Of a stretch of 64,000 nt of DNA, positions 5,701-54,425 are shown one piece after another. Numbering within the stretch: the stretch's first letter is position 1; each line of letters starts with the position of its first letter. The DNA is from Stegostoma tigrinum. Its lineage: Eukaryota. A program made the position numbers and the translations under genes. The stretch is from contig NC_081358.1 in the NCBI RefSeq assembly GCF_030684315.1, forward strand, positions 12,012,142-12,076,141. Direction: 5' to 3'. A model generated the notes under the pieces. The model was given only the letters and a program-made list of their open reading frames with translations. It had not been told where the DNA came from and searched no databases.

Positions 5701-5749
5701 TGGTTATATCTGCTGCCTCCTACTCCCCTAGCCAAACATTTCAGATTGG

Positions 5750-6578
5750 AGATAATGGGAACTGCAGATGCTGCAGAATCCAAGATAATAAAATGTGAAG
5801 CTGGATGAACACAGCAGGCCAAGCAGCATCTCAGGAGCACAAAAGCTGACGTTTCGGGCCTAGACCCTTCATCAGAGAGGGGGATGGGGAGTGGGTTCTG
5901 GAATAAATAGGGAGAGAGGGGGAGGCGGACCGAAGATGGAGAGAAAAGAAGATGGGTGGAGTGGAGAGTATAGCTGGGGAGGTAGGGAGGGGATAGGTCA
6001 GTCCAGGGAAGACGGACAGGTCGAGGAGGTGGGATGAGGTTAGTAGGTAGGAAATGGAGGTGCGGCTTGGGGTGGGGGGGGGAAGGGATGGGTGAGAGGA
6101 AGAACAGGTTAGGCAGGCAGAGACAGGCTGGACTGGTTTTGGGATGCAGTGGGTGGAGGGGAAGAGCTGGGCTGGTTGTGTGGTGCAGTGGGGGGAGGGG
6201 ACGAACTGGGCTGGTTTGGGGATGCGGTGGGGGAAGGGGAGATTTTGAAGCTGGTGAAGTCCACATTGATACCATTGGGCTGCAGGGTTCCCAAGTGGAA
6301 TATGAGTTGCTGTTCCTGCAACCTTCGGGTGGCATCATTTTGGCACTGCAGGAGGCCCATGATGGACATGTCATCTAAAGAACGGGAGGGGGAGTGGAAA
6401 TGGTTCACGACTGGGAGGTGCAGTTGTTTATTGCGAACCGAGCGGAGGTGTTCTGCAAAGCGGTCCCCAAGCCTCTGCTTGGTTTCCCCAATGTAGAGGA
6501 AGCCACACCGAGTACAATGGATACAGTATACCACATTGGCAGATCTGCCAGTGAACCTCTGCTTAATATGGAAAGTCA
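5750..6578 (-). mobile_element. Penelope-like retroelement, 5'-truncated (GIY-YIG endonuclease, pyrimidine-rich 3' region, terminal hammerhead and tail)
   Basis: ORF 6109-6612 has ANVVYCIHCTRCGFLYIGETKQRLGDRFAEH...HF...LGTLQPNGINVDF (PLE GIY-YIG); flanked by the direct repeat tcagattgg (5741-5749, 6579-6587). Confidence 0.9.
5848..5875 (-). ncRNA. Minimal type I hammerhead ribozyme motif (PLE terminus), core intact
   Basis: Minus strand reads CTGATGA-A-GGGTCTAGGCCC-GAAAC-GTC; GGG/CCC stem II, palindromic ACGT in place of stem III, GUC cleavage triplet; stem I is only about 2 bp by eye. Confidence 0.7.
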
Positions 6579-10591: not shown

Positions 10592-10820
10592 TGTATCAGA
10601 GATAATGGGAACTGCAGATGCTGGAGAATCCAAGATAACAAAGTGCGGAGCTGGATGAACACAGCAGGCCAAGCAGCATCTCAGGAGCACAAGAGCTGAC
10701 GTTTCGATCCTAGACTGATGAACCCTCTCTGTTGAAGGGTCTAGGCCCGAAACGTCAGCTTTTGTGCTCCTGAGATGCTGCTTGGCCTGCTGTGTTCATC
10801 CAGCTTCACACTTTGTCATC
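10592..10820. mobile_element. Palindromic PLE-terminus element with hammerhead at the turn
   Basis: Inverted arms of about 85 bp plus tail on the left; TSD ggagttagctatagt at 10577-10591 and 10823-10837. Confidence 0.9.
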
Positions 10821-18798: not shown

Positions 18799-19017
18799 AT
18801 CAGAGATAATGGGAACTGCAGATGCTGGAGAATCTGAGATAACAAAGTGTGGAGCTGGATGAACACAGCAGGCCAAGCAGCATCTCAGGAGCACAAAAGC
18901 TGACATTTTGGGCCTAGATTTTTCTGATGAAGGGTCTAGGCCCGAAACGTCAGCTTTTGTGCTCCTAAGATGGTGCTTGGCCTGCTGTGTTCATCCAGCT
19001 CCACACTTTGTTATCTT
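18799..19017. mobile_element. Palindromic PLE-terminus element; intact plus-strand hammerhead core at 18924-18951
   Basis: Inverted arms; perfect 17 bp TSD aaacaaaaaaaccttgt at 18782-18798 and 19018-19034. Confidence 0.92.
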
Positions 19018-21306: not shown

Positions 21307-22762
21307 CAGAACAGAGAACAAAGAAAATTACAGCACAGGAACAGGCCCTTCAGCCCTCCAAGCCTGCGCCGATCGAGATCCTCTGCCTAACCTGTCATCT
21401 ATTTTCTAACGGTCTGTGTCCATTTGCTCCCTGCCCATCCATGTACCTGCCCAAATACATCTTAAAAGACGCTAACGTGTCTGCATCTACCACCTCCGCT
21501 GGCAAAGTGTTCCAGGCACCCACCACCCTCTGCGTAAAGAACTTTCCACGCATATCTCCCATAAACTTTCCTCCTCTCACGTGAACTCATGACCCCTAGT
21601 AGTTGAGTCCCCCACTCTGGGAAAAAGCTTCTTGCTATCCACCCTGTCTATATCCTTCATGATTTTGTAGACCTCAATCAGGTCCCCCCTCAATCTCCGT
21701 CTTTCTAATGAAAATAATCCTAATCTACTCAACCTCTGTTCATAGCTAGCACCCTCCATACCAGGTAACATCCTGGTGAACCTCCTCTGCACCCTCTCCA
21801 AAGCATCCACATCCTTTTGGTAATGTGGCAACCAGAATTGTACACAGTATTCCAAATGTGGCCGAACCAAAGTCTTATACAACTGTAGCCTCACCTGCCA
21901 ACTCTTGTACTCAATAATCTGTCTGATGAAGGAAAGCATGCCATATGCCTTCTTGACCACCCTATTGAACTGCGTTGTCACCTACACGGAACAATGGACC
22001 TGAACACCCAGATCTCTCTGTTCATCAATTTTCCCTAGGACTTTTCCATTTACTGCATAGTTTGCCCTTGAATTTGATCTTCCAAAATGCATCACCTCAC
22101 CTTTGCCCGGATTGAACTCCATCTGCAATTTATCTGCCCAACTCTCCAGTCTATCTATATTCTGCTGTAATCTCTGACAGTCCCCTTCACTATCACCTAT
22201 TCCACCAATCTTAGTGTCATCTGCAAACTTGCTGATCAGACCACCTACACCTTCCTCCAGATCATTTACATATATCACAAACAACAGTGGTCCCAGCACA
22301 GATCCCTGTGGAACACCACTGGTCACAGGTCTCCAACTTGAGAAACTCCCTTCTACTACTACCCTCTGTCTCCTGTTGCCCAGCCAGTTTTTTATCCATC
22401 TAGCTAGCACACCCTGGACCCCATGTGACTTCACTTTCTCCATCAGCCTGCCATGGGGAACCTTATCAAACGCCTTACTGAAGTCCACGTATATGACATC
22501 TACAGCCTTTCCCTCATCAATCAACTTTGTCACGTCCTCAAAGAATTCTATTAAGTTGGTAAGACATGACCTTCCCTGCACAAAACCATGCTGTCTATCA
22601 CTGATAAGCCCATTTTCTTCCAAATGGGAATAGATCCTATCCCTCAGTATCTTCTTCCCTACCACTGACGTCAGGCTCACCGGTCGATAATTACCTGGAT
22701 TATCCTTGCTGCCCTTCTTAAAAAAGGGGACAACATTAGCAAGTCTCTGGAACCTCACCCAT
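21307..22762 (-). mobile_element. Young CR1 LINE, 5'-truncated (RT domain to 3' UTR)
   Basis: ORFs 21982-22758 and 21577-21981: NYRPVSLTSVVG, QHGFVQGRSCLTNL, DFSKAFDKVPH, GVPQGSVLGPLLF, KFADDTK, RPHLEYCVQFW; (TTCTTTG)-type tail. Confidence 0.96.
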
Positions 22763-23439
22763 GTCTAGAATACTTCATTTAATTCTGATCTCCCTGCAAT
22801 TGGAGAGATGCAGTCAAACTTGAAAGAATGCAGAAAAGATTTACAAGAATGATGCCAAGGTTAAAGGGTTTGAGTTACAGGAAAAGGCTGAATAGCTGGG
22901 ACCAGTTTCCCTGGAACGGAGACTGAGTGGTGACCTTATAGAGGTTTATAAAATCATGAAGTACACTATTAGGGTGAATAGCCAAGGTCTTTTTCCTTGG
23001 GTAGGGGAGTCCAAAACGAGACGGCATAGGATAAAGAAGAGAGGGGAAAGAGAGGGATCTCATGGTCAACTTTTTCACACAGATGGTGATGTGTGTTAGG
23101 AATGAGTAGAAATGGTGGAGGTGGTACAATTACAACATTTAAAAGGTATCTGGACGGGTATATGAAGAGGAAGGATTTACAGGGATATGCGCCAAATGCT
23201 GGCAAATGCGACTCGATTAATTTAGGATATCTGGTCAACATGGGCAAGTTGGACCAAAGGGTCTGTTTCTGGGCTGTACAACTCTAATTTGATTTTTATA
23301 CCCTGGCTGTATAAGTATACATATTTGGGTTATGTACCCGAATATATCCTTAATCTCTCTAGTTTTATTCACATTGCATCTTTAAAGTTTTCGTGTAATG
23401 TCTAAAACACAATTTATGATTGCTCGTCCTTTGATTTCT

Positions 23440-27266: not shown

Positions 27267-27749
27267 AAAGCATACTTTGCAATGGAAACTGTCCAATATC
27301 CAACGCTGAATTAGAAGAAGACATTTCCTCTATTGCCTCCAGGCTCTACCGCAAACGCCATTCTCAAGCCATTGACCCGCACCCGCTCTATCTTACTTTC
27401 CTAAACTTGCTGTCACATTTGTCACAAAAACGGCCACGAAATGGCCACACATCTGTTTTGTCATCGCTTCAATCAATTACGAAGGAATCTTCTTTTTCAA
27501 TTCCGCTACCTCACCTAAATTATTTTCTCTCTCCTCTAACAGCATTCAACCAGGCTGGAGTCAACTTGACACACATATCCTTGTCTGACAACTGCCTAAA
27601 ATCACATTTTTGCACATCCACACCCCAGCCCCACCCAGTCCGAATTAAAATTCATCAAAAATCCTGCGATGAAAACAATATCACAATGGCAGTTATAAGT
27701 TTTAAATTAAGCTGCTTTAAAGAATATAAACTGGGCTTCTGTCTGCAGT

Positions 27750-29050
27750 AAAGCTGGATAAACACAGCAGGCCAAGCAGGATTAGAGGAACAGGAAGGCT
27801 GACATTTTGAGCCTCGACCCTTCTTCAGAAATGGCGGAGGGGAAGGAGGTTCTGAAATAAATAGGGAGAGAGGGGGAGGCGGATAGAAGATGGATAGAGG
27901 AGAAGACAGACAGGTCAAAGAGGCGGGGATGGAGCCAGTAACGGTGAGTCGAGGTGGGGAGTGGGGAGGTAGGGAGGGGATAGGTCAGTCCAGGGAGGAC
28001 AGACAGGTCAAGGGGGCAGGATGAGGCTAGTAGGTAGGAGATGGGGGTGGGGCTTGATGTAGGAGGAGGGGAGAGGTGGGAGGAAGGACAGGTTAGGGAG
28101 GCAGGGACGAGTTGGGCTAGTTTTGGGATGCGAAGGTGGGGGAGGTTTTCAAGCTTGTGAAGTCCACATTGATACCATTGAGCTGCAGGGTTCTCAAGCA
28201 GAATATGAGTTGCTGTTCCCGCAACCTTCAGGTGGCATCATTATGGCACTGCAGGAGGCCCATGATGGACATGTCGTCTGAGGAATGGGAGGGGGAGTTG
28301 AAATGGTTCTCGACCCGGCAGTGCAGTTGTTTAGTGCAAACCAAGCCTAGGTGTTCTGCAAAACTGTCCCCAAACCTCCAAGATAATAAAATGTGAGGCT
28401 GGATGAACACAGCAGGCCAAGCAGCATCTCAGAAGCACAAAAGCTGACGTTTCGGGCCTAGACCCTTCATCAGAGAGCATCTCTGATGAAGGGTCTAGGC
28501 CCGAAACGTCAGCTTTTGTGCTCCTGAGATGCTGCTTGGCCTGCTGTGTTCATCCAGCCTCACATTTTATTATCTTGGAATTCTCCAGCATCTGCAGTTC
28601 CCATTATCTCTGTCCCCAAACCTCCACTTGGTTTCCCTGATGTAGAGAAGGCCACAACGTGTACAGCAGCTGCATTATACCACATTAGCAGATGTGCAGG
28701 TGAACATCTGCTTGATGTGTGAAGTCTTCTTGGAGCCTGGGATGGGGGTGAGGGAGGAGGTGTGGGGGCAGGTGTAGCACTTCCTGCGGTTGCAGCAGAA
28801 AGTGCTGGGTGTGGTGGGGCTAGAGGGGACTGTGGAGGGACCAGAGAGAGTGGTCCCTCCAGAAAGCAGATAAGGGTGGGGAGGGATAAACGTCTTTGGT
28901 GGTGGTGTCGGATTGTAGGTGGCAGAAGTGTCGGAGGATGATGCGTTGGGTCAGGAGGTTGGTGGGTTGGTGAGGACAAGGGGGATTCTGTTTTGGTTGT
29001 TTTTGCAGGGACGGGCTGTGAAGGGTGAGTTGCGGGAAATGTGGGAAATA
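27750..29050 (-). mobile_element. Penelope-like element, left (inverted) arm of a composite; interrupted by a younger palindromic insertion
   Basis: Minus strand carries decayed GIY-YIG (FGDSFAEHL...HFNSPSHSSDDMSIMGLLQC) and the same 3' region as 29520-30600 in inverted orientation. Confidence 0.88.
28381..28609. mobile_element. Young, near-perfect palindromic PLE-terminus element with intact hammerhead cores on both strands (28446-28473 minus, 28483-28510 plus)
   Basis: Arms of about 96 bp with one visible mismatch around a 3 nt loop (gca); tail on the right; perfect 17 bp TSD ctgtccccaaacctcca at 28364-28380 and 28610-28626. Confidence 0.95.
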
Positions 29051-30624
29051 GCTTGGACCTGCCTCTTTGTACGTTACATGGAACAATCCCTCTTCCATAG
29101 CTATACTGGCCCTAAACCCCACCATTTCCTCCGTTACATTTGATGACTGTATCGGTGCCACCTTGTGCTCCCACGAGGAGCTCGAACAGTTCATACACTT
29201 CACCAACACCTTCCACCCCAACCTGGAGTTTACCTGGGCCATCTCTAATACCTCTCTCTCCTTCCTGGATCTCTCTATTTCCATCTCTGGCCACCACCTG
29301 GAAACCGATATCCATTTCAAGCCCACCGACTCCCCACAGCTACCGAGAATACACCTCCTCTCACCCACCTTCCTGCAAAAATTCCATCCCCTATTCCCAA
29401 TTCCTTCACCTCCACCGCATCTGCTCCCAGGATGAGGCATTCCACTCCTATACATCTCAGATGTCCTCGTTTTTCAAGGACCGCAACTTACGCATCTCAT
29501 TGGTCGAGAATGCCCTCAACCATGTCTCCCGCATTTTCCGCAATTCATCCCTCACACCCTCTCCCCGCAATAACAGCCAAAACACAAACCCCCTTGTCCT
29601 CACGTACCACCCCACCAACCTCCAGATCCAACGCATCATCCTCCAGCATTTCCGCCATCTGTAATCCGATCCCACCACCAAAGACATTTTTCCCTCCCCA
29701 CCCTTAACTGCTTTCTGGAGAGACCACGCTCTCTGTGACTCCCTTGTCCGCTCCACACTCCCCTCCAGCCCCACCACACCCAGCACTTTCTGCTACAACC
29801 GCAGGAAGTGCTACACCTACCCCCACACCTCCTCCCTCACCCACATCCCAGACCCCAAGAAGACTTTCCACATCAAGCAGATGTTTACCTGCACATCTGC
29901 CAATGTGGTATACTGCATCAGCTGTACCCGTTGTGGCTTCCTCTACATCGGGGAAACCAAGTGGAGGCTTGGGGACCATTTTGCAGAACACCTACACTTG
30001 GTTTCCACTAAACAACTGCACCTCCCAGTCGCGAACCATTTCAACTCCCCCTTCCATTCCTCAGACGACATGTCCATCCTCGGCCTCCTGCAGTGCCACA
30101 ATGATGCCACCCGAAGGCTACAGGAACAGCAACTCATATTCCGCTTGGGAACCCTGCAGCCCAATGGTATCAGTGTGGACTTCACAAGCATCAAAATCTA
30201 TTCCCCTCACCCTCCGCATCCCAAAACCAGCCCAGCTCATCCCCAACTCCCTAACCTGTCCTTCTTCCCATTTACCCTCTCCTCCCACCTCAAGCCCCAC
30301 CCCCATCTCCTACCTCCTTGCCTCATCCCACCCCCTTGACCTGTCCATCCTCTCGGACTGACCTATCCCCTCCCCACCTACACTCACCTTTACTGGCTCC
30401 ATCCCCGCCTCTTTGACCTGTCTGTTTCCTCTTCCCCTATCTTCTCCTCCACCCATCTTCTATCCGCCTCCCCCTCTCTCCCTATTTATTTCAGAACCCC
30501 CTTCCCCACCCATATTTCTGATGAAGGATCTCGGCCCAAAACGTCAGCTTTTGCGCTCCTAAGATGCTGCTTGGCCTGCTGTGTTCATCCAGCTCTACAC
30601 CTTGTTATCTGCAGTTCATACTAC
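29051..30624 (+). mobile_element. Penelope-like element, right arm: RT C-terminus/thumb, GIY-YIG and 3' terminus (frameshifted)
   Basis: DDCIG...EELEQFIHFTNTFHPNLEFTW..SLSFLDL...HFKPTDS; YTSSHPPSCKNSIPYSQFLHLHRICS; ANVVYCISCTRCGFLYIGETKWRLGDHFAEH; terminal CTGATGA at 30518 with GAAA mutated. Confidence 0.92.
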
Positions 30625-31317: not shown

Positions 31318-31839
31318 GGACCACAGAAAATATATGTCCATAAAAATGATCCTGAGCTTCCTGCTGCTTGCCACTTCAACACCCCACTGTGTTTCTGTCT
31401 CAGGTTTGCTGCAGCAAAGCTCAGTGCAGACTGGAAGAGCCGCATCTTATTTTCCAATTGGGGACCCTGCAACCTTCAGGACTCAATGTCGAGTTCAATA
31501 ATTTTCGGGTCTGAGCACCTTCTGCCATGTTGTTACCCCAACCCCCACACACCAGACCTTGTAATTACATGGGCTGCTCCCACAAACAACACATTGTCAG
31601 CCATTAACGCTCGCCATTATCAGGTATTCATTCTCCCAATCCTTTGTGTGGCCAGCTGTTTTACTCTCTCTGGGCTCCATATCCACTAGCCCCCACCTCC
31701 CCGCACCCAATCTTCAGCATATATACCAACCTTTTCCGAGCTAAAATCAGTTCTGCAAAGGGTCACTGGACCTGACACATTAACTGAATTAACATTAAAT
31801 TTATGCTTTTGTTTCTGATTTCCTGCATCTGTAGTTCTT
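31318..31839 (+). mobile_element. Older PLE family 3' fragment (GIY-YIG C-terminus, decayed hammerhead, tail)
   Basis: PELPAACHFN and, in another frame, LEEPHLIFQLGTLQPSGLNVEFNNF; ttctgcaaagggtcactggacctgacac at about 31751; ends tgatttcctgcatctgtagtt. Confidence 0.75.
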
Positions 31840-32098
31840 ACTTTAAAAAATCTTATTGCAATATTTAACCAGCTTTTGCGCAGATCAAACACCAGAAGTT
31901 ACTTATGATAAACAACTTCAGGCACTTCGAATTCTGGCGATTGCAGAGAAAAGTTATTTTGGCACAATGGACGTGGTGGGCCCACGAGCATCATTTCCCT
32001 GGGTGACAGCCTGGCAAGTCATTAAAGAAGTAAACAGAACAGCTCTTCAGATTGCAGTTACACAGTAGCACAACAAAGGCCCGAGGCTGGCTGTAAGA
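31840..32098. repeat. Local direct duplication, copy 1 (partner 34607-34864)
   Basis: Alignable end to end with 34607-34864; 71 bp identical run at 32015-32085. Confidence 0.93.
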
Positions 32099-32528: not shown

Positions 32529-32749
32529 CAGGAGATAGTACGAACTGCAGATGCTAGAGAATCTGAGATAACAAGGTGTAGAGCTGGATCAACACAGCAG
32601 GCCAAGCAGCATCTTAGGAGCAGGAAAGCTGACATTTCGGGCCTAGACTCTTTTTCCGATGAAGGGTCTAGGGCTGAAACGTCAGCATTCCTGCTCCTAA
32701 GATGCTGCTTGGCCTGCTGTGTTCATCCAGCCCTACATCTTGTTATCTC
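32529..32749. mobile_element. Palindromic PLE-terminus element
   Basis: Inverted arms plus left tail; TSD ataagaga(a/t)tgtgta at 32514-32528 and 32750-32764. Confidence 0.9.
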
Positions 32750-35198: not shown

Positions 35199-36439
35199 AA
35201 TTCTTTGAGGACGTGACAAAGTTGATTGAGGGAAAGGCTGTAGATGTCATATACATGGACTTCAGTAAGGCGTTTGATAAGGCTCCCCATGGCAGGCTGA
35301 TGGAGAAAGTGAAGTCACATGGGGTCCAGGGTGTGCTAGCTAGATGGATAAAAAACTGCCTGGGCAACAGGAGACAGAGGGTAGTAGTAGAAGGGAGTTT
35401 CTCAAGTTGGAGACCTGTGACCAGTGGTGTTCCACAGGGATCTGTGCTGGGACCACTGTTGTTTGTGATATATGTAAATGATCTGGAGGAAGGTGTAGGT
35501 GGTCTGATCAGCAAGTTTGCAGATGACACTAAGATTGGTGGAATAGGTGATAGTGAAGGGGACTGTCAGAGATTACAGCAGAATATAGATAGACTGGAGA
35601 GTTGGGCAGATAAATGGCAGATGGAGTTCAATCTGGGCAAAGGTGAGGTGATGCATTTTGGAAGATCAAATTCAAGGGCAAACTATACAGTAAATGGAAA
35701 AGTCCTAGGGAAAATTGATGAACAGAGAGATCTGGGTGTTCAGGTCCATTGTTCCCTGTAGGTGGCAACGCAGGTCAATAGGGTGGTCAAGAAGGCATAC
35801 GGCATGCTTTCCTTCATTGGGCAGGGTATTGAGTACAAGAGTTGGCAGGTGAGGCTACAGTTGTATAAGACTTTGGTTCGGCCACATTTGGAATACTGTG
35901 TACAGTTCTGGTTGCCACATTACCAAAAGGATGTGGATGCTTTGGAGAGGGTGCAGAGGAGGTTCACCAGGATGTTGCCTGGTATGGAGAGTGCTAGCTA
36001 TGAACAGAGGTTGAGTAGATTAGGATTATTTTCATTAGAAAGACGGAGATTGAGGGGGAACCTGATTGAGGTCTACAAAATCATGAAGGGTATAGACAGG
36101 GTGGATAGCAAGAAGCTTTTTCCCCCCCAGAGTAGAGGATTCAATTACTAGGGGTCATGAGTTCAAAGTGAGAGGAGGAAAGTTTATGGGAGATATGCGT
36201 GGAAAGTTCTTTACACAGAGGGTGGTGGGTGCCTGGAGCGCATTGCCCGCGGAGGTAGACACAGACATGTTAGTGTCTTTTAAGATGTATCTGGACAGGT
36301 ACATGGATGGGCGGGGAGCAACGGGATACAGACTGTTAGAAAACAGATGACAGGTTAGACAGAGGATCTCGATTGGCGCAGGCTTGGAGGGCCGAAGGGC
36401 CTGTTCCTGTGCTGTAATTTTCTTTGTTCTTTGTTCTTT
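35199..36439 (+). mobile_element. Young CR1 LINE, 5'-truncated; near-identical to 21307-22548 in opposite orientation
   Basis: ORFs 35213-35761 and 35762-36151 with DFSKAFDK, GVPQGSVLGPLLF, KFADDTK; tail ttctttgttctttgttcttt. Confidence 0.96.
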
Positions 36440-37727: not shown

Positions 37728-37951
37728 ACAGAGAGAGTAGAAACTGCTGATGCTGGAGAATCTGAGATAGCACGGTGTGAAGCTGCATGAACACAGCAGG
37801 CCAAGCAGCATCAGAGGAGCAGGAAAACTTGATGTTTCGGGTCAGGACCCTTCTTCTGAAAGGAAGGGTCCCGACCCGTAACGTCTAGCTTTCCTGTTCC
37901 TCTGATGCTGCTTGGCCCACTCTGTTCATCCAGCTTCATACCATGTTATTT
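37728..37951. mobile_element. Palindromic PLE-terminus element (variant stem II GGGTCCTGACCC)
   Basis: Inverted arms plus left tail; TSD gaca(c/t)ttataatttgtt at 37711-37727 and 37952-37968. Confidence 0.9.
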
Positions 37952-39653: not shown

Positions 39654-39866
39654 GAGGGATAATGGGAACTGCAGATGCTGGAGAATCCGAGATAACAAAG
39701 TGTCAAGCTGGATGAACACAGCAGGCCAAGCAGCATCTCAGGAGCACAAAAGCTTATGTTTGGGGCCTAGACCCTTCATCAGAGGGTCTAGGCCCGAAAG
39801 GTCAGCTTTTGTGCTCCTGAGATGCTGCTTGGCTTGCTGTGTTCATCCAGCTCCACACTTTGTTAT
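39654..39866. mobile_element. Palindromic PLE-terminus element
   Basis: Inverted arms plus left tail; TSD ctcagtctgtccat at 39640-39653 and 39867-39880. Confidence 0.9.
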
Positions 39867-41059
39867 CTCAGTCTGTCCATCCTCTGTTATTGCTGCAGCG
39901 TGTGCTTCTTTCTGGTGGGTAGCTGCTGGCTGGCTTTCCTAAAATCAAACTCTTTGAAGCTTCTACCAGCCTATCAGAACAAAATAGGATTTCACTGTGG
40001 TTTTGTGCTTGTTTCCAAACTTTATAGCCGTATAAAAGGATTGCAACATTATCTTCAGCTTGGGTTTTTTTTGTCCAATAGATTGAGTTTGAATGCAGGG
40101 TTTCCTTAAATTGCTCAATGCTTTTCCAGTTATACTGAAATTACTTTCATTGCCACTGTATGGCTGCTGAGAACTGCATGTTAGAAATATAGGTGAACAG
40201 CAACAGGGGATATATGGGAGAATGAGGTGACACAGGCGAAGAGAAAGAGATTGGTGAAGTTTCTGATGAGTTTAAACAATGCTGTACTGGAGTATTTCCA
40301 AGTCCGGATTGACTTTTTTTTTAAAGACCACCATCAATTCACTCATGTCACTAATTACTGACTCTAGATTGAAAATCAAGCATTTAATTTGCTCTGCATG
40401 TGGAATATACTTGATGGTTACAGAACATCACAACAATACAGACACTTTCACAAACAGGTCATCAACTCAGAATGGTAATTCTGAATCTCTCTTTGCAGAT
40501 GTTGCCTGACCGCCTGAACACTTCCAGCTTTGTAATCTGCTAGAAAAGTCATTCCGAGTTGAATGTTATGTTTTTTGGTAAGTCTGAGCTGTGTTTAGTT
40601 TTCAAAGGGTTTTTCACCATGAGGCCTAGCAGATTTCCTCGCCCTATCTGATCAAACTTGTGCATTAAAATTGCCTGTTCCCACCCGACAGTGTCTCTCA
40701 CATCCAATTTCTGCCCCATGTTACCACAACTCAACTACTCTGCCAATATCTAGCCAAAGACTGAAATCTTCTGTGCCATCTTGAAAATACCACAGCCCAC
40801 TTGGCCAACTCTGAGGCTGCCCTTCTCATTTGTAGACATGTCTGCAAGATGTCGGAAAAGGAGAAGGTGGCAATGCGATCTACCAACACTAAGCTGGAGA
40901 TCCTGGTGGGAACTGAGAGAGGAGGCCAGGCCACCAGGCCCTGCAAACCTGCTCTGAGCTTGCCACCTGGGTCAGTGCCATCTCCAGGATGAACAGAACA
41001 ACAGACAGCATGTTCCACGGAAGGTCAATGATCCTCTGCGCTCAGCCAGGGTTAGTGTC

Positions 41060-46129: not shown

Positions 46130-46229
46130 CTGAAAGTAGACATACAATAATTTATCAGCAGTGACCGAAGGTTTCTAAGCGAATGAAATTCAAGAGACTG
46201 TTGATTCAAAACACCCAGTGATTCATCCT

Positions 46230-46404
46230 AGATAACAAGGTGCAGAGCTGGATGAACACAGCAGGCCAAGCAGCATCAGAGGAGCAGGAAGGCTGACATT
46301 TCGGGCCTAGACCCTTCTTCTGAGCTTTCCTGCTCCTCTGATGCTGCTTGGCCAGCTCCGCACCTTGTTATCTCAGATTCTCCAGCATCTGCAGTTCCTA
46401 CTAT
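46230..46404. mobile_element. Palindromic PLE-terminus element 100 nt upstream of the exon 2 acceptor
   Basis: Inverted arms (right arm internally deleted) plus right tail; TSD cagtgattcatcct at 46216-46229 and 46405-46418. Confidence 0.9.
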
Positions 46405-47069
46405 CAGTGATTCATCCTTACCAGCATAATGTGAAATTCAGAATTCAGTAAAGGGTTGAATAGGTACAATTTAGAAAGCTACAGAAACTGTAATGAGGAG
46501 TGGATATTCCAAATACAGAAACACCAAGTACCAGAAACCAGATAAACTGAAACAACAGGGGGGAAATGTACAAGATGATGAGATTGGAAAAGAATTGATT
46601 CAAGGCGACAATGCAGTTCAGACAGACATAGCTCAGTGAAGTCAGCAATGCAGTAATTAATCGGGGGTGGATATATAAAGGCAGGTCAAGAGCAAAATCC
46701 CCGATAGGTGTCAACAACAAGGCTATGGGCCTAAGTGCTGGGAAATGGGTTTAAAACAGTTAGCTGGTTGTATTTGACTGGTGCGGACTCAATGAGCCAA
46801 CTAACTTTTTTCTGTGCTGTAGACCACTTTTAACTCAAGGAATTGTGACATGTCTGCATGCTAAGTCCTACTTGATCACTACATTACAGCAAGATTTTGC
46901 AAGTTAATACAAAGCTGAAGAAACCTTATCTGTGATGAAAGGTTAAAGATCTGAGGATTGGTTGCTCTAGAGAATAGATACTCAGCGGAAATATTGCACA
47001 GAAAACTTCAATGAACTGTGAAATATTGGAGAGTGCCAAAATCTAGAAACATGGAGTAACAGGAATACA

Positions 47070-53049: not shown

Positions 53050-54425
53050 TCCCATTCTTGCAATGTTGGACCCAGCACATATGTTAAAGATCAGGCAGAA
53101 GCATTCACAACCATCTTCAGCCTGAGGTGCTGACTGATTTTATTGTTGTCGCATGCAGCGAGATACAGTGAAAAGCATTGTTTCGCATGCTACACAGGCA
53201 GATCATATCATATAAAGAAGGAGAGTGCAAAATAAGTGTTCAATGGCAGAGCACGTGCAGAGAGAGATCAGAATTAACAATTGATAGATCTGTTCAAAAG
53301 TCTAACAGCAGAGAAGAACGTTGTTCCTGAATCTGTTCATACGTGTGCTCAAATTTTCTTCTGGCCGACAGAAGTGGGTGGAAGTGCGTATAACTGGAAT
53401 GGGAGGGGTCTTGATTATAAGTGGATCATCCATACTAACTTCCATCTGAGGTCAGTATCATCACAATGAGACAAATGAAGGCTTATGGGTCCATGACATT
53501 TCAGCTGTAGTGCAAAAGAGTTTTGCTCTAGAACTAGCCTCACCTCTAGCCAAGCTGTTCCAGTTGAACTCCTGACCTCTGACCAATTCGAAAATTGCCT
53601 TGTTTTGCCCACTCCAATATGAACAGGATAAAGCCGATTTGGCTTAGTATTGCTTCATTAGTTGACTTATCAATCATTAAAGTGACAGAAGGTGTCAGCC
53701 CACAGTGCTGTCATTAATATACTGAGCAGTGATGCTCAATCTAGGTTTCACCAGGGTCATTTCACTCCAGATCCAATTGGTATCTTGGTGTAAACATGAA
53801 CAAAATGCTAAATTCCAGAGGTAGTGGGAACTGCCGGTGCTGGAGAATCTGAGACAACGTGGAATAGAGCTGGATGAACACAGCAAGCCACGCAGCATCA
53901 CAGGAGCAGGAAAGCTGATGTTTCGGTGATTTCTGAAGAAGGGTCTAGGTCCGAAATGTCAGCCTTCCTGCTCCTCTGATGCTGCTTGGCCTGCTGTGTT
54001 CATCCAGCTCTACATCACTAAATTCCAGAGGCTAGATGAGAGTGACTTACCAGCACATCACAGCAACATTCTGACTATGAGAGGCCAAGGAGTGTGGCAA
54101 AAACTAGAGTCACTGAGAATCAGGCTGGAAAACCTTCACTGAAGTCATAACCTGCACAATTACTGGAGGCCAAACTTCTCAGCCCCAAGAGATCTCTACA
54201 GGAACTTTCCTAGGACAAAGACATAGACCATTTCCAACTGCTTCATCAAAGACATCCTGCCTTCTAATGTTCAGAAATTGGAATGCTGGCTATTGATTCC
54301 AGTTCACCATTTCATTTCAAACAAGAATTGGACAACAGTCAACCCAGCACTGATAAGTGGCAAGTTACATTTATACCATACAACTGCAATTGTCTCAAAC
54401 AGAACAGGCTAATCACTTCCCTTGA
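53050..54425 (+). mobile_element. Old LINE fragment (second copy at about 9265-9650), host of the 53822 palindrome
   Basis: Shares gaggctcca..atc, accatcttcagcc, gctccagaact..cc..tagccaagctgttcca with 9330-9640; RT-like decay downstream; clade not determined. Confidence 0.55.
53822..54017. mobile_element. Palindromic PLE-terminus element; plus-strand core CTGAAGA..GAAA at 53933-53960
   Basis: Inverted arms plus left tail; TSD ctaaattccagagg at 53808-53821 and 54018-54031. Confidence 0.9.

Follow-up and report, generated by a model that had tools for sequence, protein, structure and literature searches.

Two hammerhead cores in a duplicated-target insertion

The window analysed here, a stretch of 64,000 nucleotides from Stegostoma tigrinum, contains a near-perfect hairpin whose arms (28377–28476 and 28480–28579) mismatch at 1 of 100 positions (28433) and are separated by a 3-nt loop. 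Each arm carries a 28-nt minimal hammerhead core, and the two cores are identical and lie on opposite strands where a sequence-only reading of this DNA had placed them (Table 1). That reading was right about the hairpin and its cores; it did not notice that the target is duplicated, that one arm has a tail or that the insertion sits in a host element. The hairpin is a 229-bp insertion (28381–28609) between identical 17-bp copies of a target-site duplication (TSD), a 30-bp extension (the tail) is present on the right arm and absent from the left, and the whole stub landed in the antisense arm of an older inverted copy of the same family. We number element positions so that 0 is the C that opens the hammerhead core, which places the core at 0 to +27 and the predicted cut between +27 and +28.

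The plus core is made up of CUGAUGA, an extra A, a 4-bp stem II with a tetraloop, GAAA and a palindromic ACGU that replaces stem III. As RNA the hairpin has a fold of −196.6 kcal/mol (z = −27.9), equalled by none of 200 shuffles. Exact back-to-back cores, 0–12 bases apart, occur 6,574 times genome-wide; as the reversed control gave none and about 0.001 would be expected by chance, the pattern is not a chance arrangement. An ATG within the young-subfamily core opens a 13-codon frame (28486–28527, plus strand in the window). At L079:6329–8143 (minus strand) this frame is joined to the element ORF, which continues across the repeat into it; older copies with CTGAAGA are without the core ATG.

The inverted arm of the insertion is likely a cDNA primed from the top target strand. 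The last four bases of the left TSD match the arm, and this may be microhomology at the left priming site. Among loci picked for their likeness to this hairpin, the target often ends in CCA next to the tail-less arm, matching the template (window 28377–28380, L002, L003, L006, L015, L018 and L024), which suggests priming with 3–4 bases of pairing. Two bases in the junction (28478–28479) are without counterpart in parent copies, and the first of them would be a copy of the RNA cap.

Table 1. Coordinates of the hairpin insertion, its host copy and related features of the window
Feature	Position	Strand	Details
TSD, left copy, 17 bp	28364–28380	+	Identical to 28610–28626; last 4 bases match element arm
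Inverted tail-less arm, element +92 back to −4	28381–28477	−	Sequence comparison
Minimal hammerhead core	28446–28473	−	Predicted cut between 28446 and 28445
Head-to-head junction	28474–28482	.	Left arm to −4, right arm from −3
Direct arm, element −3 to +96	28480–28579	+	Arm alignment
Minimal hammerhead core	28483–28510	+	Predicted cut after 28510
One-sided 30-bp tail, +97 to +126	28580–28609	+	Insertion comparison
TSD, right copy, 17 bp	28610–28626	+	Identical to left copy
Older long inverted copy, same family	27748–30610	.	Arms 83–86% alike, divided exactly at the stub
Decayed core of older copy	27828–27801	−
Decayed core of older copy	30518–30545	+
TATA-like box of older copy	30483–30490
Element ORF remnant (P0002), Cys-motif linker and GIY-YIG endonuclease	29665–30339	+	Weak Pfam GIY-YIG match, E 0.085
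Young parent-type reference copy	5748–5909	−	TATA-like box 5909–5902, −4 at 5879, core 5875–5848, arm, tail
Further short hairpin, own centre	10599–10820
Further short hairpin, own centre	18803–19017
Further short hairpin, own centre	32531–32748
Further short hairpin, own centre	37731–37950
Further short hairpin, own centre	39658–39868
Further short hairpin, own centre	46225–46405
Further short hairpin, own centre	53818–54015

The parent is an EN+ Penelope-like element

The plus arm of the older inverted copy encodes the GIY-YIG remnant P0002, which gave 372,395 first-look candidates genome-wide. At locus L079 an ORF of 605 amino acids matches RVT_1 (E 2e-4) and GIY-YIG (E 6e-3), both under the Pfam cut-offs, with YIDD and YIGET motifs visible. 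Many of its 841 homologues carry RVT_1 and some carry GIY-YIG; the closest named ones are from carpet sharks, at 88–94% identity. The parent ORF is known from its start (L023) and from this 605-residue RT–EN stretch. A Cys linker of the form C-x4-C-x2-C is present in P0002 and P0004, the L079 frame also has the Cys linker motif, and a CX2-5CxxC motif in the RT–EN linker is described as marking Neptune/Nematis (PMC8557442). Copies running beyond the tail enter a 5′ UTR and then the ORF start at +167 (L023); arm and tail are therefore the 5′ UTR of the element RNA. At a Pfam threshold of E 0.001, none of the nine PLE-remnant frames of the window matched, and the two matches obtained were unrelated RT remnants. 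These two, at 21985–22764 (minus) and 35201–35758 (plus), match RVT_1 with E 6e-32 and 2e-21 and likely belong to another class of retroelement.

The family thus assembled has an ORF with RT followed by GIY-YIG, a repeat with the 5′ UTR and ORF start, a 30-bp tail, an inverted truncated copy and a TSD, the features of EN+ Penelope-like elements. An inverted 5′-truncated copy, a one-sided tail of 30–40 bp and a TSD form the layout described for such elements (PMC3846280, PMC8557442). The 229-bp hairpin is a stub insertion of an EN+ Penelope-like element in this known inverted-end layout; the structure of the locus has already been described in print, and the locus itself is ordinary. A MITE or other DNA transposon was also considered and is contradicted by the tail, which is one-sided in 58 of the 62 short hairpins, by TSDs of 10–19 bp and by variable centres.

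Short hairpins are abundant, one-tailed and variable at the centre

In a random sample, 146 stretches of 10 kb spaced at fixed steps (1.46 Mb), we found 327 arms, of which 132 form 66 head-to-head pairs, 62 of them short. The density of short hairpins is about 42 per Mb; scaled up to the genome, the sample implies about 1.4e5 of them and about 7e5 arms. A TSD of 12–19 bp flanks 42 of the 62 short hairpins and one of 10 bp flanks a single further case, with none in 19; among 200 mismatched-flank controls, one reached 12 bp or more. Arm 3′ ends concentrate near +93 and +126. Exactly one tail is present in 58 short hairpins, none in 4 and two in 0, where independence would expect 31, 18 and 14 (p 5e-12).

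The exact 35-nt junction of the locus recurs at 20 places, which reduce to 14 independent insertions after seven duplicates are merged, and it lies in one orientation relative to the tail in 8 of these insertions and in the other in 6. Junctions are diverse: those 14 make up 0.2% of the 6,574 back-to-back junctions. Among the loci retrieved, 29 others match the 229 bases at 94–100%, seven of them duplicates of one insertion and two (L023 and L027) a single locus. The seven (L004, L005, L008, L010, L011, L012 and L014) are copies of one same-junction insertion with shared flanks on six contigs, and this insertion sits inside a larger duplicated unit. Each of the further short hairpins of the window has its own centre, and in the one at 46225–46405 one arm begins at the cut site. 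Short re-copied pieces of arm ends are found at some junctions (L067:5052, L071:6497, L206:4337 and window 10715–10725); they may be insertions templated by the arm ends, of the kind that end joining or template jumping produces.

Two separately primed cDNAs would account for the hairpins

Starting from what the DNA displays directly, namely the target duplication, the one-sided tail, the parent ORF with RT and GIY-YIG, 3′ ends near +93 and +126 and 5′ stops at −4 and +28, we propose that the hairpin represents two head-to-head copies of a ribozyme-bearing Penelope-like end within one target-duplicated insertion. Both cut target strands would each prime a short cDNA, one strand probably at each of two internal RT start sites; each cDNA would run off the 5′ end of the element RNA, and the two would be joined end to end. 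Position −4 would be the capped transcription start and +28 a 5′ end produced by hammerhead cleavage, which may cut a minority of the RNAs in the germ line, and the stub itself is probably a dead by-product. At 28381–28609 both cDNAs would have reached the start of uncut RNA, which would be why both cores are whole. We give this overall reading a probability of about 75%. An enzyme with the necessary activities has been described: the purified protein of Poseidon_Ac (PAc) from Anolis carolinensis nicks and extends both strands, and its two internal RT starts flank the tail (Frangieh et al. 2024, PMC11167929).

For the junction palindromes of rotifer Penelope elements, the published account is self-priming (PMC3846280, Discussion). 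One cDNA, or an antisense RNA in the version proposed by Arkhipova et al. 2013 (PMC3846280), doubles back to serve as its own template, and resolution of one end by the endonuclease leaves the tail one-sided. Such a fold-back would explain the strict one-tail rule without coordination of two primers, and the 1–4-nt overlaps or templated re-copies at many junctions speak for it. It predicts that the arm made first should be longer, whereas among 58 hairpins the 5′ reach is greater for the tailed arm in 21 and for the untailed arm in 20, and equal to within 2 nt in 17. Neither arm being systematically longer, two separately primed cDNAs are favoured. A fold-back should also leave a loop, yet loop-less is the commonest type of junction (modal type 8 of 50; loop-less palindromes are 12 of the first 50 junctions listed, by hand count); loop-less centres could instead come from later repair. 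Nor does self-priming accord with one asymmetric junction found in both orientations (8 versus 6), or with solo arms, which likewise stop at −4 and +28. We regard it as quite unlikely.

The recurrence of one exact junction in 14 independent insertions, and the 29 other loci at 94–100% identity, would be expected if the 229-bp hairpin were an independent non-autonomous element whose full length is transcribed and then copied by the enzyme of the parent. That junction is nevertheless a tiny fraction of a diverse set and lies both ways relative to the tail, grounds on which we downgraded a self-propagating hairpin element. The TATA-like box, moreover, lies outside the stub, and the tails of several hairpins continue into the parent 5′ UTR. 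Copying of the hairpin as a unit is thus highly improbable, and assembly from two cDNAs at each insertion remains the preferred explanation.

Arms stop at −4, a candidate capped RNA start

In the sample, the interval −8 to −1 holds the ends of 48 of the 132 arms in hairpins and of 38 of the 185 unpaired ones, and 9 arms in hairpins end further upstream. Ten arms at the edges of stretches were flagged, and the unpaired ones among these are omitted from the counts. Because divergence of old copies from the references could mimic ends in this interval, the young subfamily was counted genome-wide. Its non-parent ends number 6,246 at −4, 2,615 at −5 and 1,592 at −6, the listed rows at −6 being mostly overlaps with the opposite arm. 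All 32 long references have an AT-rich box upstream, which in most is TATTTATT at about −34, 30 nt before −4. About 30 nt is the canonical spacing between a TATA-like box and the start of transcription.

Of 100 rows, 71 have G immediately before −4, 21 have T and 8 have A (the search pattern excluded C); in the non-hairpin rows, judged by eye, G is found in 24 of 41. The listings for −4 and for +28 comprise the first 100 rows met along contig C1 rather than rows drawn at random. For L1 and SVA insertions, cap copying is the published explanation of an extra 5′ G (PMC3287187), and the extra G before −4 is likely a cap copy as well. In the four solo copies with this G and a readable TSD, the G is extra in one and target-derived in three (L242 read by eye). 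A target-derived G would fit pairing of the terminal C with the target and does not prove it. Taken as RNA ends, these stops make −4 the likely capped start of the element RNA.

A second stop at +28 coincides with the predicted ribozyme cut

The 1.46-Mb sample has no clear peak at +28 (4 of 127 arms, with a mean of 2.2 per base). In the young subfamily genome-wide, 34 of the first 100 of 7,927 arms starting at +23 to +35 do so at +28, with 2–6 at neighbouring positions (counted by hand). Perfect hairpins centred on AGCT at +28 number 709; two control palindromes of equal length, ACGT at +23 (CpG decay permitted) and GGCC at +55, are the centres of 47 and 23. Since two ends at +30 could give the same junction, AGCT-centred hairpins were excluded, after which the first 100 of 2,166 rows, again by hand, comprised 37 at +28, 8 at +29, 7 at +30, 13 at +31, 14 at +27, 5 at +26 and 16 at +25. 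The excess at +28 has p 1.5e-5 against +29, 5e-6 against +30 and 9e-4 against +31. G precedes +28 in 9 of 37 rows, as against the 24 of 41 before −4 (p 0.003), and this low proportion is as expected of an uncapped end; cleavage would leave just such an end, at precisely the predicted cut. The peak was not repeated in the older subfamily, where the first 100 of 971 rows on C1–C2 (by hand) gave 15 at +28, 14 at +29, 7 at +30 and 15 at +31, about 20 of the rows being of a frame-shifted subfamily or unclear. Starts at +25 are also in excess, at 16 of 100 in the young subfamily with AGCT hairpins excluded and about 11 of 100 in the older one, often after the same few upstream bases.

Both stops might instead be stalls of the reverse transcriptase at RNA structure, either the stem between core positions 0–5 and 24–29 or the C-rich tract upstream, rather than ends of RNA. 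The 0–5/24–29 stem is the predicted minimum, two +30 ends could produce the AGCT-centred junction, and the older subfamily is without a clean +28 peak. Stalling nonetheless sits poorly with a peak that stays at +28 and not +30 once AGCT hairpins are excluded (37 versus 7), and it cannot explain why G precedes −4 and not +28 or why −4 lies 30 nt from the TATA-like box. We consider stalling unlikely. Understood as an RNA end, the +28 peak suggests hammerhead cleavage in vivo, read from DNA fossils. If real, cleavage would touch a minority of RNAs, because 100 of the 132 arms in hairpins include bases upstream of the cut and so came from uncut RNA. In Anolis, Frangieh et al. report that RNA-seq reads ending at the cut site were not found and that cleavage is not needed in vitro (PMC11167929).

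The motif fits a minimal, dimer-type hammerhead

The features of a minimal type I hammerhead are present, namely CUGANGA...GAAA...UH, an extra base before stem II, G10.1–C11.1 and a palindrome in place of stem III. Together with the parent ORF, they bear out the identification as a minimal, Penelope-type hammerhead of the dimer type. The minimal hammerheads of PLEs described by Cervera and de la Peña 2014 (PMC4209133) likewise have no helix III, a palindromic 15.2–16.2, an extra base 9/10.1 and G10.1–C11.1. That paper already records dual minimal hammerheads on opposite strands, 100–700 bp apart, whereas the two here are 9 bp apart; stem II is 4 bp here compared with 7–8 in Schistosoma, and stem I is 2 bp, the same as in D. 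virilis.

The motif is described from 179 cores, taken both from the window and from the random sample and chosen by their core letters. A7 is found in 178 of 179, pair 8–19 in 169 and C at position H in 166. Position 7 is variable (T 121, A 57, C 1) and stem I is short, with pairs −1/+28 in 170, −2/+29 in 166 and −3/+30 in just 17 of the 179, both as the sequence-only reading had noted. Its third observation, that stem II covaries, held in part: stem II pairs are intact in 165–174 of 179 cores, the commonest listed pair types are one-sided changes (U–G 143, U–A 30) and none of the common types is two-sided. The example that it had drawn from about 31.76k is a decayed core of a different family, without intact CUGANGA and GAAA. 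The decayed end in which it lies (31720–31840), with its core-like motif and a segment resembling a tail, belongs to another Penelope-like family.

An Rfam search, proposed earlier as a check, returned no hammerhead model at E ≤ 1, presumably as expected, because the motif is without helix III. All 13 matches that it did return, to miRNA-hairpin models and one scaRNA model, were under the gathering score, and we rejected the miRNA-model matches as hairpin artefacts. Folding predictions point to a misfolded monomer (−11.4 versus −3.6 kcal/mol); the modelled dimer form is also distant from its minimum (−13.3 versus −38.0). The stem of the predicted minimum pairs core positions 0–5 with 24–29. 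Assistance by a protein, as for PAc, would reconcile poor folding with activity.

It had also been proposed that the antisense arm of the hairpin is a built-in off switch, one selected to silence the ribozyme in any transcript. Its physical premise stands: the antisense arm emerges first whichever strand is transcribed, and read-through RNA would fold into a single long duplex that buries the motif, in keeping with the fold energy given above. The notion of a built-in switch is unsupported. Both cores are spanned in only 13 of 62 short hairpins, and the 709 perfect hairpins that fold back at the cut site are without any core. At about 42 per Mb, short hairpins are a routine insertion product, and their diverse junctions, with both tail orientations (8 versus 6), are as expected of new assembly at each landing. 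An element RNA that likely starts at −4 would have no antisense arm, the stub has no TATA-like box upstream, and the monomer is predicted to misfold even without an antisense arm. The locus, besides, is a young insertion within a decayed copy. We therefore hold a selected switch to be extremely improbable.

Relation to known elements

Pen2a_Av of Adineta vaga (PMC3846280; PMC8557442, Fig. 2 legend) is alike in its head-to-head inverted 5′-truncated copy, one-sided tail and TSD, and its terminal repeat also holds a hammerhead and a TATA-like box (PMC3846280, PMC8557442). The unit in the shark differs in being about 230 bp long, without an ORF between the arms, and in its extrapolated 1.4e5 copies. 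The explanation in print for Pen2a_Av is self-priming, whereas the symmetric arms seen here favour two primers. PAc resembles the present family in the two RT starts that flank its tail, in the nicking and extension of both strands, in a hammerhead upstream of the RT starts and in a template that is mostly uncut. The PAc ORF, however, begins within the hammerhead, whereas that of the present family starts at +167 and encodes a linker with the Cys motif of Neptune/Nematis; its report found no reads at the cut site (PMC11167929).

A search of the main text of open-access papers found none that reports these insertion-end maps. From the maps, a start site, two RT starts and a cut site can each be placed at an exact position. 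For the minimal hammerheads of metazoan PLEs, PMC4209133 stated in 2014 that in vivo evidence was absent; the +28 peak would be such evidence, of an indirect kind. With thousands of insertion ends at the predicted cut and a contrast between cap and no cap, cleavage in vivo becomes directly testable. The one-tail rule and the symmetric arms bear in addition on the origin of inverted pseudo-LTRs.

A more tentative idea, which we hold to be doubtful, is that PLEs replicate in an LTR-like way without a tRNA primer. The RNA would run from the capped −4 to the ribozyme cut in a downstream repeat, with −4 to +27 (32 nt) as terminal redundancy. Target-primed reverse transcription from near the 5′ end would yield a strong-stop cDNA of 95–130 nt that normally jumps to the cut 3′ end and rebuilds the pseudo-LTR, and hairpins would be pairs in which the jump failed. 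If true, this would give the hammerhead, whose role in EN+ Penelope elements is stated to be unclear (PMC8557442), a function, and it would explain the 5′ UTR at the 3′ end of the element.

Non-LTR retrozymes (Li et al. 2026, 10.64898/2026.07.22.740005) likewise derive from PLE terminal repeats, are non-coding and carry type I hammerheads. They are head-to-tail tandems, whereas the hairpin unit is head-to-head and TSD-flanked; membership of the hairpin in that class is contradicted by this single head-to-head unit with its TSD. Retrozyme-like head-to-tail arrays of the element end do occur at L094:4982–5845 and L077:7450–8218. The L094 array has 301-bp units with a TATA-like box, hammerhead, tail and ORF start, and the spacing in L077 is 440 bp. 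In principle, such arrays could supply tandem hammerheads.
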